The notes below the pieces were generated by a model. It did no database searches, was not told the DNA's origin, and saw only the letters and a program-made list of their open reading frames with translations. Below, one piece after another: positions 1 to 14,974 of a stretch of 24,000 bases of DNA. The translations under genes and the position numbers were made by a program. Every line of letters begins with the position of its first letter. Within the stretch, counting starts at the first letter, position 1. The stretch is from an uncultured Collinsella sp. Its GTDB lineage: Bacteria; Actinomycetota; Coriobacteriia; Coriobacteriales; Coriobacteriaceae. Location: the NCBI GenBank assembly GCA_900556875.1, contig USQQ01000001.1:118450-142449 (forward strand). The letters are read 5' to 3'.

Positions 1-133
1 CGGGCCGAAAATCTCGATCTGTAACATCTAGCCGAGGTTTTTGGTCCTACCTGTTACAGATTGAGACAATTCGACGATGCTGAGTATTTGATGCGCCGTG
101 GTACAATTGTGTCCCAACGCAAAGGAGGTACCC

Positions 134-400
134 ATGCCCACCTGTGTGCCCGTCCGAGACATGAAGGACACCGCTGCATTTACCGCGCTTGTTGATTCTG
201 AGCGCGACGTCACCGTAACCAAGAACGGCTACGAGGCCATGCACTGTATCAGCAATGACCAATATCGCCTCATGCAAGACGAAATCGCCAAGGCAAAGCT
301 GCTGTCTCGCATGATGTTGGCAGAAGACGAGATATCGCAAGGCGACTACAGCGACTATGACACCTTCGCGACCGCGATACGAGACAAATATGGCCTATAG
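134..400 (+). CDS. Type II antitoxin, Phd/YefM-like (copy 1)
   Basis: AAGGAGG at 122-128 lies 5 nt before the ATG at 134, which I prefer to the ORF-track start at 98. The N-terminus VPVRDMKD..F..LV....DVTVTKNG.....ISNDQY fits the Phd/YefM fold pattern. The gene overlaps the downstream toxin by 11 nt, which is typical TA coupling. Confidence 0.8.
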   Translation: MPTCVPVRDMKDTAAFTALVDSERDVTVTKNGYEAMHCISNDQYRLMQDEIAKAKLLSRMMLAEDEISQGDYSDYDTFATAIRDKYGL

Positions 401-695
401 CGTCGTAATACTCAAAAGCGCACGATATGAGTACGAGAGTATCGTTGGATACCTTGCCCAAATCCTCAAGAATCCGCGCGCAGCGGGCAATTTTGTCGCT
501 GAGTTTGAATATCAGCTTGATTTGCTTCGCGAGCAGCCGCTCCTACGACCTCTCTCACACATACGAGAGCTGGCGGCACGTAATTACCGATCGTTTCCCG
601 TCAACAACTACACCTGTCTTTACAAGTTTGAGCACGATACGATCTATATCGCCCATGTCTTTCACCAGTCACAGGACTACGCCCGCCTGATCTAG
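390..695 (+). CDS. Type II toxin, RelE/ParE superfamily (copy 1)
   Basis: The 101-aa ORF starts at ATG 390, inside the antitoxin's 3' end. Its size and C-terminal pattern (..YRSFPVNNY.CLYKFE.D.IYIAHVFHQSQDY) are typical of ParE/RelE toxins. Confidence 0.8.
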   Translation: MAYSVVILKSARYEYESIVGYLAQILKNPRAAGNFVAEFEYQLDLLREQPLLRPLSHIRELAARNYRSFPVNNYTCLYKFEHDTIYIAHVFHQSQDYARLI

Positions 696-709
696 CCCCG
701 CGGCATCGG

Positions 710-750
710 CTAGCAAATGACCTGCGTGTGTTCCTCGATGGCGGCGCGAC
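710..750 (-). pseudogene. Remnant of a deoR 3' end (last 12 codons plus stop)
   Basis: The reverse complement reads ..AAIEEHTQVIC*, matching the C-terminus of the intact DeoR at 14210-14974 (..AAIEEHAQVIC*). Homology breaks at 750. Confidence 0.85.
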
Positions 751-763
751 CGCATGCCATCGA

Positions 764-2134
764 TCAGATAAAGATCGTCATATACAGAGGAAGATATATC
801 CTATGCCCTTCAGCCCTGAGCTGTTTTGGGTGAAGAACTATCTCCTCTCCGACTCGTCGTTCAAATCTTCTGCCGAAATCGTCAAGTGAGATTGTTGAAT
901 ACGATTTGGAAGATTTAACTTCAACAGGAGTGACCCGCGGTTTTCTAGCCGCATCTTCAAAGCCGCGCGAAACAAGAAAATCAATCTCACGCGTTCTGGG
1001 ACGACTCCCCTCCGTTTTGGAAGGCTCCTGCCAGCTGTAATAAAAAAGCGAATGCCCCAGACTCTTGAGCTGCTGTGCCACGATATTCTCGATCAACATT
1101 CCTTTATTAATCGAAATTCTTCCAAACTGAATATCTCTATGGACATCCATAAGGTCCGGACCATCATCAAACGCCAAGCTCACGAGCAATCCCGTGTCCG
1201 CCATATAGCATTTAAGCGAAGACGCGTCCTCGTGCAAGCGGTAACCCACGCTCGGATCGCTGCATAAATAGCAACGGTTAATCAGTCGCGCATCCTCAAG
1301 CCAAATTAACGCCGACTCATATGTCTCAAAACGGGACCCTTTCTCCAAGCTGTCAAATTTAAACCGTTTATTTGCCGCAGATAATTGACCCGGAATGTCG
1401 TCATAAACCGCCCGCGCACGTCTAGCGTCCGAACCTCCAAACTTGGCAATGTCCTCCCTGTACAGCGCGATAATCTGCCGTTTAACCCTGTCGCTTCCTC
1501 TAAAATCATTCTCTGCCACAAAGGAATCTACCGACTGAGGCATACCGCCGACAAGCATATACTCATCAAACAATCTCATGCACGTCGCATGAGCACCGTC
1601 CGGAAGCGCGGTCCGAGATTCGCACGCTTTACGGATCTCTTCCGCGTAAAGATCCTTTCCGGTCGCCCAAAGATACTCCTCAAAATCGAGGGGCTCGAGA
1701 GGGATTCTTTCTTCCTCTGACGGAATAACAATGCTTTCGACATTCTTTTTGATGGAGACGAGAGAGCCCGTCTCGATGTAATCAAATCTGCCGTCTTCTA
1801 CAAGATGCTTTATGTATTCGCGCGCGATGGGAAACCGCTGCACTTCATCAAAAATGACCAGTGATTCTCTCGGCACGAGGGCCTTGCCATACTGCAGCTG
1901 AAGCATGCGTAAAAAAAGATCGACATCTTCACGATGATTCAGAAATATATCGAGCGTGGCTTTGCTTGCAGCCGAAAAGTCAATGTAAAGGTAGTCCTTG
2001 TATTCATTTTGCGCGAAGCACTTTACGAGTGTCGTTTTGCCAACGCGTCTTGCACCCTCAATAAGCACCGCAGTGCGCCCTTGCGAGCGTTCTTTCCACT
2101 CCTGCAGACGCTCATATGCCTTCCGTTTAAACAT
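764..2134 (-). CDS. AAA+ ATPase of the AAA_14/DUF4143 (COG1373-like) type with a C-terminal PD-(D/E)xK-like nuclease motif
   Basis: 456-aa ORF. Walker A is GARRVGKTT (aa 27-35) and Walker B is VIFDE (aa 93-97). The C-terminal motifs are GMLIEN (E349), EIDFLV (D385) and VEVK (E405/K407, nt 914-922). GAGGTG lies 6 nt before the ATG. The region is visibly more AT-rich than its flanks. Confidence 0.85.
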   Translation of the reverse strand: MFKRKAYERLQEWKERSQGRTAVLIEGARRVGKTTLVKCFAQNEYKDYLYIDFSAASKATLDIFLNHREDVDLFLRMLQLQYGKALVPRESLVIFDEVQRFPIAREYIKHLVEDGRFDYIETGSLVSIKKNVESIVIPSEEERIPLEPLDFEEYLWATGKDLYAEEIRKACESRTALPDGAHATCMRLFDEYMLVGGMPQSVDSFVAENDFRGSDRVKRQIIALYREDIAKFGGSDARRARAVYDDIPGQLSAANKRFKFDSLEKGSRFETYESALIWLEDARLINRCYLCSDPSVGYRLHEDASSLKCYMADTGLLVSLAFDDGPDLMDVHRDIQFGRISINKGMLIENIVAQQLKSLGHSLFYYSWQEPSKTEGSRPRTREIDFLVSRGFEDAARKPRVTPVEVKSSKSYSTISLDDFGRRFERRVGEEIVLHPKQLRAEGHRIYLPLYMTIFI

Positions 2135-2167
2135 AAGCTCACCTCAGCATAAATTACCTGCTAGTTT

Positions 2168-2250
2168 ACAAAAATACCGACCCTTATATATATCGAATAA
2201 TACAAAAATACCGACCATTGCAATGGTCAGAATACACAATAATACCGAGC
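2168..2250. promoter_or_regulatory. AT-rich upstream region of the ATPase gene with three direct repeats at 34-bp spacing and a 16-bp perfect palindrome
   Basis: ACAAAAATACCGACC occurs perfectly at 2168-2182 and 2202-2216, and at 13/15 as ACAATAATACCGAGC at 2236-2250. The palindrome GACCATTGCAATGGTC is at 2213-2228. Confidence 0.6.
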
Positions 2251-2407
2251 TTTATGTATAACAGATGCTATGCCGCACCGTGAAACAGCCGCAACTCGTC
2301 GCAAAGGGAAACCTATATCTGCGTGCGTACCTATTTGAAAGACAGAAAATGTTGACGCAACAATCCCCTGTGACGGCAGGGGGCAGAAGCATCTCTCGCG
2401 ACGCCAG

Positions 2408-2704
2408 CTAGCAAATAACCTGCGTATGCTCCTCGATGGCGGCGCGATCCTAATCGTCAATATCCGGCTCGCACACCACGGCGTCCAAATTGTCCAAGCG
2501 GCTGAACGTGTAGAAGTCACGCTTGCCGATTTTGCTGGAGTCGGTGATAAGATAGCGCGAACTATCAGGAACCTCGGCGGACGTGCCACTCAAACTCACA
2601 ATAAAATGCCCCTCCCCGATTGCTCGGAGAAGGGCATCTGCATTGGCGTTCTTGCCAAAATCGACGGCGCGCAAGAACGCGCACCCGTCCGCATCAAGAG
2701 TGCG
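2408..2704 (-). pseudogene. Decayed deoR copy: C-terminal sugar-binding-domain fragment with no HTH and an internal TAG
   Basis: Positions 2407-2560 align at the nucleotide level with 14209-14360 of the intact deoR. The translation ..RYLITDSSKIGKRDFYTFSRLDNLDAVVCEPDIDD*DRAAIEEHTQVIC* has an in-frame TAG at 2450-2452. The N-terminal ~160 codons are missing, and the fragment abuts the HPr stop codon. Confidence 0.8.
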
Positions 2705-13509: not shown

Positions 13510-13568
13510 TGTCTCAATCCGTAACATCTAACCGAACTTTTCGGTCCTACCTGTTACAGATTGAGACA
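13510..13568. promoter_or_regulatory. 17-bp inverted repeat at the left boundary of the TA repeat, overlapping a putative -35 element
   Basis: TGTCTCAATCCGTAACA (13510-13526) pairs with TGTTACAGATTGAGACA (13552-13568) at 16/17. The 25-nt spacer contains a nested ACCGAA/TTCGGT hairpin. TTGAGA in the right arm could serve as a -35. A degenerate version lies at 10-68. Confidence 0.5.
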
Positions 13569-13633
13569 ATTCAGCGGCGCCGACAATTTTTTATGACGTG
13601 GCACAATTATGTCCCAATGCGAAGGAGATACCT

Positions 13634-13900
13634 ATGCCCATCTGTGTGCCCGTCCGAGACATGAAGGACACTGCCACATTCACCGCACTTGTTGAGTCTG
13701 AGCGCGACGTCACCGTAACTAAGAACGGCTACGAGGCCATGCACTGCATCAGCAGCGACCAGTATCGCCTCATGCAAGAAGAAATCGCCAAAGCCAAGCT
13801 GCTGTCTCGTATGATGCTGGCAGAAGACGAGATATCGCAAGGCGACTACAGCGACTACGACTCCTTCGCGACCGCGATGCGAGACAAATATGACCTATAA
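13634..13900 (+). CDS. Type II antitoxin, Phd/YefM-like (copy 2)
   Basis: It differs from copy 1 at 8 of 88 residues and is intact. GAAGGAG precedes the ATG at 13634. Confidence 0.8.
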   Translation: MPICVPVRDMKDTATFTALVESERDVTVTKNGYEAMHCISSDQYRLMQEEIAKAKLLSRMMLAEDEISQGDYSDYDSFATAMRDKYDL

Positions 13901-14195
13901 CGTCGTAATACTCAAAAGCGCACGATATGAGCACGAGAGTATTGTCGGATACCTTGCTCAAATCCTCATGAATCCACGTGCAGCGGGCAATTTTGTCGCT
14001 GAGTTTGAATATCAGCTTGACCTGCTTCGCGAGCAGTCGCTCCTACGGCCCCTCTCCCACATACGGGAACTGGCGACACGCAATTATCGATCGTTTCCCG
14101 TCAACAACTACGCGTGCCTTTACAAGTTTGAGCGCGATGCGATCTATATCGCCCACGTCTTTCACCAGTCACAGGACTACGCCCGCCTGATCTAG
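13890..14195 (+). CDS. Type II toxin, RelE/ParE superfamily (copy 2)
   Basis: It differs from copy 1 at 9 of 101 residues and is intact. It has the same 11-nt overlap with its antitoxin. Confidence 0.8.
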   Translation: MTYNVVILKSARYEHESIVGYLAQILMNPRAAGNFVAEFEYQLDLLREQSLLRPLSHIRELATRNYRSFPVNNYACLYKFERDAIYIAHVFHQSQDYARLI

Positions 14196-14209
14196 CACGG
14201 CGGCACTCG

Positions 14210-14974
14210 CTAGCAAATGACCTGCGCGTGCTCCTCGATGGCGGCGCGATCTCCGTCAGCAATACCCGGTTCGCACACCACGGCGTCTAAATTGTCCAGG
14301 CGACAGAAGGTATAGAAATCGCGCTTGCCGATCTTGCTGGAGTCGGCGATCAGATAGCGCGAGTCCGCCTTGCTAAAGGCGAGCTGCTGGATACGGCCCT
14401 CGTCCATGTTGGACGTGGATACGTCACCGTCCAAGATACCGTTGGCGCCGATAAACGCCGCATCGATGCCCAGCGCACGTAGGGTATCCTCGGCCGTCGG
14501 CCCCACAAAAGCGGCAGTGCGGCGGCGGTACATACCGCCCACGAGGCACAGCTCGCAGTCTTCGCGCGCCTCGAGCAGGTTAAACACCGAAAGCGAATTG
14601 GTCACAATGCGCAGGCGAAACGTCGGCAGCATCGAGGCCATCTGCTCAACCGTGGTGCCCGTACCCAAGAAGATGGTCGAGCCTTCCTCGATAAGCTCCA
14701 CAGCGCGGCGCGCGATCTGCAGCTTTTCCTCGGCATGCTTAGTGCGCTTTTCGCTGTGCGAATACTCATGGCGCAGCATAGCGTGGGGACGGCCCTGTGC
14801 ACTGCGGGCTCCGCCATGCACGCGCTCGATCTCGCCTAGGCTCGCAAGTTCTTCGAGGTCGCGGCGAATCGTCATGTCCGAAACGCCCAGCGCATCCGAA
14901 ATCTCTTTGACCGAGACCGTACCCTGCTCCTCGAGCAGCTGACGAACCTTATCCTGTCGCTCTGCCTTAATCAC
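14210..14974 (-). CDS. DeoR/GlpR-family transcriptional repressor (AgaR/LacR-like)
   Basis: 254-aa ORF with an N-terminal HTH (..VSVKEISDALGVSDMTIRRDLEEL..) and a DeoR C-terminal sensor domain (..FLGTGTT..., ..AFIGANGI.., ..ADSSKIGKRDF..). Confidence 0.9.
   Translation of the reverse strand: MIKAERQDKVRQLLEEQGTVSVKEISDALGVSDMTIRRDLEELASLGEIERVHGGARSAQGRPHAMLRHEYSHSEKRTKHAEEKLQIARRAVELIEEGSTIFLGTGTTVEQMASMLPTFRLRIVTNSLSVFNLLEAREDCELCLVGGMYRRRTAAFVGPTAEDTLRALGIDAAFIGANGILDGDVSTSNMDEGRIQQLAFSKADSRYLIADSSKIGKRDFYTFCRLDNLDAVVCEPGIADGDRAAIEEHAQVIC

Follow-up and report, generated by a model that had tools for sequence, protein, structure and literature searches.

The 24,000-nucleotide stretch of DNA analysed here (hereafter the window) comes from a Collinsella aerofaciens-group genome and carries, on its minus strand, a gene for an AAA+ ATPase of the AAA_14/DUF4143 family (COG1373, PDC-S01). 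The real finding of the analysis is the array of evenly spaced direct repeats in front of this gene, which, as far as the searchable literature goes, is a previously undescribed hallmark of the family; no description of promoter repeats was found in the searchable literature on AAA_14, DUF4143, COG1373 or PDC-S01. Comparison of upstream sequences shows that arrays spaced at 33 or 34 bp are a near-universal feature of the family, and the repeats are probably the ATPase protein's own DNA-binding sites, forming an autoregulatory operator array. The gene, its array and the elements near the start codon are as follows.

764..2134, minus strand: AAA_14/DUF4143 (PDC-S01) protein, 456 aa (Pfam, PADLOC, AlphaFold2 model, Foldseek, alignment)
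2168..2260, minus strand: three direct repeats with an exact 34-bp spacing (motif counts, Collinsella alleles, homologue arrays)
2168-2182, 2202-2216 and 2236-2250: array cores, sense-strand core (G/C)TCGGTATT(T/A)TTGT
2135..2167, minus strand: short leader with the Shine-Dalgarno sequence GAGGTGAG 5 nt before the ATG and a candidate -10, TAATTT (read from the sequence)
2213..2228, no strand assigned: perfect 16-bp palindrome GACCATTGCAATGGTC, inside array unit 2

The exact 34-bp period of a 15-bp motif at 2168, 2202 and 2236 had been pointed out in an earlier inspection of the bare letters (the sequence-only reading) and is borne out by motif counts, which give 3 matches to the 13-15-nt motif against 0.41 expected. 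The 13-mer core is found nowhere else in the 24-kb window. In its short form the Collinsella core is TCGGTATTTTTGT, and of the two promoter alleles of Collinsella, one has three units and the other four, with the exact 34-bp distance kept in both. We infer the Collinsella promoter from the candidate TAATTT -10, which is located 17 nt after the last core, in the same register as in the homologue promoters; the gene-proximal unit likely overlaps the -35/spacer region. A comparison of the array region with a plasmid collection gave no match. The 16-bp palindrome at 2213-2228, also remarked on earlier, is present and perfect in the window (hairpin z -2.4). As a conserved operator or terminator it was rejected, since it is imperfect in the comparison loci L024, L026 and L004. 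An RNA element upstream of the ATPase gene was rejected as well, with no Rfam match at E up to 1 and a fold z of -1.5, no better than shuffles, as was a CRISPR-like mini-array, the 'spacers' being conserved between strains and the units only 13-20 nt long.

Among the closer homologues, a protein of 72% identity encoded beside GmrSD genes has two upstream units, one of 68% identity among sugar genes has three, and an Adlercreutzia homologue of 67% identity has three units of a different motif (ATATCGCGAATTTTG). A metagenome scan supplied 80 further homologue loci at 44-64% identity. The array test, applied to 80 loci with at least 200 nt of upstream sequence, searched the 200 nt preceding the start codon for 10-mers repeated with a period of 32-35 or 63-70. 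Arrays were detected upstream of 72 of the 80 homologue loci. Among the controls, they turned up in 2 of 81 regions downstream of the gene, and in none of 61 regions far upstream or of 80 shuffled sequences. When the proteins were clustered at 90% identity (homologues 44-72% identical), 44 of 48 clusters had arrays, and the four 'negative' clusters contain weaker 33/34-bp repeats by eye. The cluster arrays comprise 2-6 units, three being the most common number, with a spacing of 33 bp in 59 instances and 34 bp in 33, at loci whose GC content ranges from 0.32 to 0.65. The units always have the orientation of the gene. Their motif varies widely among homologues around a common core of approximately TTGc-N3-TTTCGTGcA, and it differs both between homologues and between Collinsella paralogues. 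At many Firmicutes-type loci, the gene-proximal unit provides the -35 of a textbook TTGnnn-17-TATAAT promoter. Members of only 29-32% identity, in Collinsella, Bacteroidales, Vibrio and Vescimonas records, also have arrays, at approximately 33 or 66 bp; the phyla of these carriers are Actinomycetota, Bacteroidota, Bacillota and Pseudomonadota. A distant AAA_14/DUF4143 paralogue of 425 aa was seen at L004:1621-2898, near the master deoR-ParE/Phd module of that locus; in the 90 nt upstream of it, directly before the ATG, there are three AAAT(A/T)TGGTTAA-type units.

The question of which protein reads the array was approached through the neighbouring genes and through covariation. Among 131 neighbouring open reading frames (ORFs) at the homologue loci, dereplicated to 51 clusters at 90% identity, no common family and hence no conserved partner gene was found; they are a mix of metabolic and regulatory genes with a few of defence type (3 AriA, 2 GmrSD and 2 HEC-06). 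On the other hand, the motif follows a part of the ATPase protein itself. In a pairwise comparison of 45 representatives, made with a crude motif alignment and without regard to shared ancestry, motif similarity correlated with the identity of the predicted winged helix with a Spearman coefficient of 0.28 and a partial coefficient of 0.255, a value reached by 0 of 300 label permutations; the partial coefficients for the AAA+ module and the nuclease domain were -0.135 and 0.06. A scan of all 456 alignment positions for association with CGTG-containing units ranked residue 270 first, a position at the N-terminal end of the predicted recognition helix. Of the 20 top positions, 11 fell within the winged helix, a domain that accounts for 18% of the protein. 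Residue 270 is Arg in 24 of 24 proteins with CGTG arrays versus 8 of 21 without (p 2.8e-6); in the window protein, whose core is TTTTTGT, it is Glu.

The protein to which these residues belong is a stand-alone, full-length and typical member of the AAA_14/DUF4143 (COG1373, PDC-S01) family. The Pfam profile search expected from the sequence-only reading to return AAA_14 and DUF4143 did so, with both above their curated cut-offs (AAA_14, E 3.3e-22, 79.3 bits, cut-off 27; DUF4143, E 6.1e-21, 75.2 bits, cut-off 28.1), and the PADLOC PDC-S01 model (PDLC04786) matches residues 1-454 with E 3.5e-102. Four parts can be distinguished in the AlphaFold2 model.

aa 1-160 (2134-1655), minus strand: AAA+ module (AlphaFold2 model)
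aa 161-231 (1654-1442), minus strand: helical lid (AlphaFold2 model)
aa 232-312 (1441-1199), minus strand: winged helix (AlphaFold2 model)
aa 340-456 (1117-767), minus strand: PD-(D/E)XK-like domain (AlphaFold2 model)

The whole-chain model has a predicted local distance difference test score (pLDDT) of 89.2 and a predicted template modelling score (pTM) of 0.90. In it, the winged helix consists of helices 234-251 and 269-281 and a β-hairpin at 285-311, and the C-terminal αβββαβ elements are helix 344-358 (with E349), strands 363-370, 380-392 (with D385) and 398-406 (with E405, followed by K407), helix 415-427 and strand 431-435. In an alignment of 56 homologues of 59-77% identity, the Walker A residue K33, the Walker B residues D96 and E97, and E349, D385, E405 and K407 are invariant. 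The Walker A motif GARRVGKTT and the Walker B motif VIFDE, both read earlier from the translation, are intact, and the four residues that had been proposed as a PD-(D/E)xK core occupy the expected elements of the model. Modelled alone, the C-terminal domain has a pLDDT of 80.5, and its best structural matches, which are weak (E 5e-3, template modelling (TM) score ~0.39-0.4), are the PD-(D/E)XK enzymes MspJI, AspBHI, Bax1 and Can2. The proposed ATPase-nuclease fusion thus stands as an AAA+ ATPase joined to a predicted PD-(D/E)XK-type domain, an assignment that was already known; DUF4143 was listed in the PD-(D/E)XK superfamily in 2012 (PMC3424549). For the whole chain, the top Foldseek matches in the PDB are ORC/Cdc6 chains, including the archaeal Orc1/Cdc6-DNA complexes 2qby_B and 2v1u_A, with 380-417 aligned columns and E ~1e-5 at a low whole-chain TM score (0.23-0.31); MalT (8bob_C) is second-best, and RFC, MuB, TnsC and Avs4 (8dgf) also appear. 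By sequence, no Pfam or NCBIfam match places the protein in the Cdc6/ORC family, the only related profile matches being ATPase_2 (E 4e-4, below the cut-off) and an RFC model (15 bits, cut-off 280), and a sequence search of the PDB found no related solved structure. Taken together, the model predicts an Orc/Cdc6-like AAA+ module followed by a lid, a winged helix and a PD-(D/E)XK domain in which the catalytic signature is complete.

Based on these results, the repeats may be understood as follows. One protomer would bind each unit through its winged helix, and the AAA+ modules would oligomerise, making binding cooperative and nucleotide dependent. The complex on the array would control the ATPase gene's own promoter, most likely by repression; that binding would set the gene's own transcription is suggested because the gene-proximal unit overlaps the -35/spacer region. 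The PD-(D/E)XK domain would be the effector nuclease. With moderate confidence, we favour the joint reading in which a fixed PDC-S01 gene possesses an autoregulatory array bound by its own winged helix, and in which the repeats flanking the gene (described below) come from partial duplications. Several points weigh against it. MalT-type activators also occupy the -35, so that repression and activation are not told apart; a scan with the sigma-70 consensus gave no match on the minus strand in Collinsella; the distant paralogue at L004 has a spacing of 23 bp; and the covariation tests ignore shared ancestry and use a crude motif alignment, so that they are supportive and not proof. In addition, a host factor or tandem promoter-like elements could in principle be the source of the repeats.

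According to this last explanation, the 33/34-bp repeats are read by a host transcription factor, or are tandem promoter- or UP-like elements that boost or buffer expression. Many units are indeed promoter-like, with TTGnnn cores and A/T-rich spacers, and a generic TTTCGTG-like core, which a conserved host factor could read, recurs across many homologues. However, the upstream units usually have no -10 at the right distance. A host factor is also difficult to reconcile with motifs that are very different from one homologue to another and among the paralogues of a single species, with arrays in hosts of four phyla and of GC 0.32-0.65, with the lack of any conserved neighbouring gene, and with a motif class that follows the ATPase's own winged-helix residues; this explanation is therefore unlikely. 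A doubtful but somewhat more attractive possibility is that the array is the loading platform of an ORC-like oligomer, a DNA cofactor in cis on which an ATP-dependent oligomer, assembled on its private array, would both set expression and hold or license the nuclease, so that gene and array form one functional unit. The best structural matches of the protein are ORC/Cdc6 bound to origin DNA, up to 6 units reach far upstream of the promoter, and the pitch stays at 33/34 bp across phyla while the motif drifts, which suggests that the pitch is constrained by the geometry of an oligomer and not by the architecture of the promoter. The negative heterologous phage test of another PDC-S01 member (cited below) is in keeping with this. 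Nevertheless, such a platform is purely inferential, cooperative autorepressors keep a fixed spacing too, and two units are enough in several homologues. If it were true, the functional unit of a very abundant family would be 'gene plus cis DNA array', an architecture undescribed for any defence or selfish system, and this could explain why the member so tested was inactive in a heterologous host.

Similar arrangements are known from other systems. Archaeal Orc1/Cdc6 proteins share the AAA+ module, lid and winged helix with the predicted structure and have repeated DNA elements directly beside their own gene, whereas the window protein has no sequence-level membership in that family and carries an extra C-terminal nuclease domain. 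Unlike Orc1/Cdc6 origin boxes, the repeats of this family form purely direct arrays with an even pitch of 33/34 bp, and an unwinding element is not obvious. The presence of several family paralogues per genome argues against an origin function. The MalT-type STAND (signal transduction ATPase with numerous domains) regulators resemble the proposed system in combining an oligomerising NTPase with a DNA-binding domain and in having same-orientation sites of which the nearest lies on the -35, if the ATP dependence and binding presumed here hold. MalT differs in its LuxR-type helix-turn-helix (HTH), its sensor repeats and its regulon of other genes, whereas the only sites seen in the window are in the ATPase gene's own promoter (3 in 24 kb) and the protein has a nuclease domain. 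Iterons of plasmid Rep proteins and the DnaA boxes in the dnaA promoter are likewise evenly spaced direct repeats beside the gene of their binding protein and serve its autoregulation, with the same proviso for binding here; they differ in the fold and family of that protein. Iterons are usually ~22 bp apart and located in replication origins. With respect to the effector part, Avs3/Avs4 also have an NTPase fused to a PD-(D/E)XK effector, Avs4 (8dgf) being among the whole-chain matches, and the MspJI-type restriction enzymes MspJI and AspBHI are the best, weak matches of the C-terminal domain (E 5e-3, TM 0.39); both groups differ from the window protein in domain order and sensor parts.

The window copy is like PDC-S01 in its full-length match, its single gene, its intact ATPase motifs and its PD-(D/E)XK signature. 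It differs in lying outside any restriction-modification, BREX or DISARM locus, and in its promoter array, which is part of no description of PDC-S01 found in the searchable literature. PDC-S01 was derived as a PADLOC phage-defence candidate by 'guilt-by-embedding' (bioRxiv 10.1101/2024.01.29.577857), so that the earlier suggestion of a defence-type gene agrees, through the PDC-S01 match at E 3.5e-102, with a label that was already published. It is reported to be the fourth most common 'defence' type across prokaryotes, with ~39,000 detected copies (PMC12988326), and the most frequent single locus in rumen genomes (PMC13356809). One PDC-S01 representative gave no protection in E. coli B against T4, T5 or T7 (bioRxiv 10.1101/2024.09.26.614923). 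A defence-island context was rejected as weak and inconsistent, since the neighbours are mostly housekeeping genes with occasional defence genes. A defence role of the ATPase gene is plausible in view of its PADLOC candidate status and the occasional defence neighbours; the mostly housekeeping neighbours and the negative phage test of one member weigh against it. An array that covaries with the protein is the first concrete handle on the family, because it offers a defined DNA ligand, a predicted reading head near residue 270 and a predicted oligomer pitch. Reports of defence screens should also make clear if the clone of the gene included its native upstream region.

In the window, the minus strand reads in order HPr (2977-2705), a 144-nt spacer, a deoR relic (2560-2407), ~270 nt of non-coding DNA, the ATPase ORF (2134-764) and a second deoR tail (750-709), which is followed by the convergent ParE (390-695) and Phd-like (134-400) genes. 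The ATPase copy is set between PTS (phosphotransferase system)/peptidase genes and a toxin-antitoxin copy. The same locus, identical or nearly so, is seen in many human-gut assemblies and Collinsella genome records. The sequence-only reading had seen here a self-contained, mobile or selfish AT-rich cassette with a single gene, bracketed by att-like repeats derived from the end of deoR. Its descriptive part is accurate: the direct repeats at 709-750 and 2407-2448 are identical at 38 of 42 positions and extend to 51 nt at 86% (699-749 versus 2397-2447), one 456-aa ORF (764-2134, minus strand) lies between them, and GC is 0.477 for 751-2406 versus 0.578 for 2407-24000. The composition check proposed at that time gave a GC at third codon positions (GC3) of 0.51 for the ATPase gene, compared with 0.68-0.76 in the neighbouring genes, and the base composition of the gene is foreign-looking. 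The origin of the repeats is a different matter, and the following features bear on it.

14210..14974, minus strand: full-length DeoR-family regulator, 254 aa (HTH_DeoR E 3.1e-19, DeoRC E 1.4e-48)
13512..14249, plus strand: master copy A, made up of hairpin, Phd-like gene and ParE, directly adjoining the true deoR end
12..749, plus strand: toxin-antitoxin duplicate B, 739 bp, 89.7% identical to 13512-14249 (hairpin 12-66, Phd-like 134-400, ParE 390-695, deoR tail)
709..750, minus strand: deoR tail copy Y, last 40-42 nt, the inner end of the duplicated ParE/Phd module
2407..2560, minus strand: deoR relic copy X, last 154 nt, 85.7% identical to 14209-14362, with an in-frame TAG at 2450-2452; holds the repeat 2407-2448
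2374..2406, minus strand: native deoR 3' flank carried along with the relic (homology to the L035 module A region; by-eye alignment to L035 and L036)

A third, true deoR tail ends the full deoR in the same window; this tail and the 739-bp duplication had both been missed. There are thus three deoR tail copies, and the two flanking the ATPase gene belong to different partial copies of the deoR-ParE/Phd junction. The tails diverge by ~7-14%, with 7% between the flanking copies and 10% and 14% between these and the copy at the deoR end. The repeat sequence is therefore deoR-derived, as had been thought, but the deoR beside the ATPase is no gene, only a 154-nt relic with an in-frame stop, which gives a DeoRC match of E 1.7e-4 on the fragment and is fused at 2561 to HPr-downstream DNA. 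The ParE/Phd pair next to the cassette had been called intact. ParE matches ParE_toxin with E 3.7e-10, its stop at 695 lies 68 nt from the ATPase stop, and the toxin and antitoxin genes overlap at 390-400 with the antitoxin upstream; the antitoxin, on the other hand, falls below the Pfam threshold, the Phd_YefM matches of the two copies being E 0.012 (duplicate B) and 0.0015, both under the cut-off.

Compared with the deoR loci of other Collinsella, the window remains homologous beyond the repeat and inside the 'cassette', at least as far as 2374. A hairpin at 2365-2382, earlier taken for a T-tailed insulator of the cassette, has a 6-bp stem, no adjacent T run and z -1.2, and it is not part of a cassette because its DNA is homologous to the deoR 3' region of other genomes. 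The DNA that follows the two tails is of two types, one having the long, hairpin-containing spacer known from L035 and L036 and the other the short 13-nt spacer of the master copy in the window. In L036 and L016-L022, the ATPase gene is followed by its own terminator, 31 nt and then 64 nt of deoR; relative to these loci, the ATPase-ParE junction of the window type is a ~90-nt deletion, so that the '42 nt' are a secondary boundary. The window allele (751-766, compared with L036:14113-14200) was also seen to be without the ATPase terminator GGTCCTGCGGCTCATTGAACCGCAGGACC that is present in L002 and L036, as a result of which ATPase transcription would run antisense into ParE. Judged from these alignments, the 42-nt repeats are the apparent products of at least two partial duplications of the deoR-ParE/Phd junction 11.7 kb away and not insertion scars.

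Whether the gene has moved was examined at loci chosen without reference to the ATPase, 10 via HPr and 17 via the M24 peptidase (at least 99% identity), all from the C. aerofaciens group; the search for an empty site combined exact-protein look-ups (ATPase, ParE and HPr) with an M24-peptidase scan of species-representative genomes. The ATPase gene is at this site in 27 of 27 loci, counting a copy in L031 that is split by an insert, and the empty site predicted for a mobile cassette was not found among these 27 Collinsella loci. A ParE/Phd copy is at the site in only ~10 of the 27, so that the polymorphic unit is the ParE/Phd module, not the ATPase; the module is absent there from L014, L015, L023-L035, L037 and L043, and also from the ATPase-selected L002, L007 and L008. 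In the relative L040 (93% M24 identity), which has no ATPase gene, 2561 is the exact point where homology to the window is lost, and the genes beyond it are unrelated. Similarly, C. tanakaei loses synteny after HPr, and the ATPase-less distant relatives all break synteny there. From these comparisons the ATPase gene appears chromosomally fixed at this site, and mobility is not supported.

The competing account, in which 751-2406 is a mobile or selfish cassette inserted in the deoR tail, site-specifically or in Campbell fashion, with the repeats as attL and attR, we regard as quite unlikely. Direct repeats on both sides of the gene, its low GC and GC3, the solitary occurrence of homologues in unrelated contexts and the lack of the gene in the more distant relatives L040-L044 would all fit it, and the two partial deoR copies overlap by 40-64 nt, which is the topology expected of an insertion. 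However, no empty site is seen in 27 of 27 loci; no recombinase or transposase lies in or adjacent to the interval, which contains one gene and has ParE/Phd and HPr as neighbours; and deoR 3'-flank homology extends inside, to at least 2374. The supposed att-like repeats belong to two partial deoR-ParE/Phd copies, and their positions do not coincide with the ends of the 'cassette'. The tail at 709-750 is the mere end of the 739-bp toxin-antitoxin duplicate, the DNA after the tails is of two module-A types (long versus short spacer), and the junction length differs between strains, 64 versus 42 nt, through secondary deletion. Nor does the same cassette recur at other loci with the same repeats, as had been anticipated: homologues share only array and gene, with no common ends, and at the other end of the ATPase gene neither the repeat motif nor a terminal inverted repeat is present. 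Phage or plasmid carriage was rejected as rare on both. The family was found in 59 of 72,556 plasmid records, mostly very large replicons, in 13 of 50,697 phage records, short metagenomic fragments except for one phage record matching only residues 1-159, and at 8 loci in one pattern scan of 2.9 million viral contigs. An ancient Campbell-type insertion into an older duplicate keeps a small likelihood, and to that extent counts against the fixed-gene reading favoured above, because the tail copies have diverged and no ancestral state was found. For this window, what looked like a mobile element becomes a fixed gene beside a duplicating ParE/Phd module.

The alleles of the gene show some peculiarities of their own. 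Between the window (757-2219) and L024:12687-14149, the ATPase gene with its array is 95.2% identical at the nucleotide level and the flanking operon 98.5%, while the ATPase protein is ~98% identical between these Collinsella 'species' despite the greater nucleotide divergence. This suggests that the ATPase alleles are older than their surroundings or have been exchanged. The insert that splits the ATPase ORF in L031, one Collinsella species representative, is 4.8 kb long (L031:13534-18300). It encodes an rRNA adenine methylase of the erm type (RrnaAD E 2.9e-57) and the mobilisation proteins NikA/MobC, together with IS66-type fragments. Either this is a small mobilisable resistance element, or the assembly is chimeric here.

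Some further observations concern the duplicating module. At the outer end of both ParE/Phd copies (12-66 and 13512-13566) there is a ~55-nt palindromic element, TCTCGATCTGTAACAG...CTGTTACAGATCGAGA, with a fold z of -5.9. It also occurs in tandem arrays of 1-4 copies, strain-variable in number, between the ATPase or ParE/Phd region and a glycoside hydrolase family 1 (GH1) gene, and was seen at L002:7640-7940, L008:7433-7651 and L036:14900-15120. It looks like a repetitive extragenic palindromic (REP) or miniature inverted-repeat transposable element (MITE) type of repeat, and it may serve as a recombination substrate that moves the toxin-antitoxin module. L004 is without the ~11-kb PTS/peptidase block, the module A hairpin being joined directly to the equivalent of window position 2281. 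In L035 (480-690), the deoR-ParE spacer of the master module measures ~250 nt and is crowded with TGACGCG(C/T)AAA in both direct and inverted orientation; the spacer is shorter in L036.

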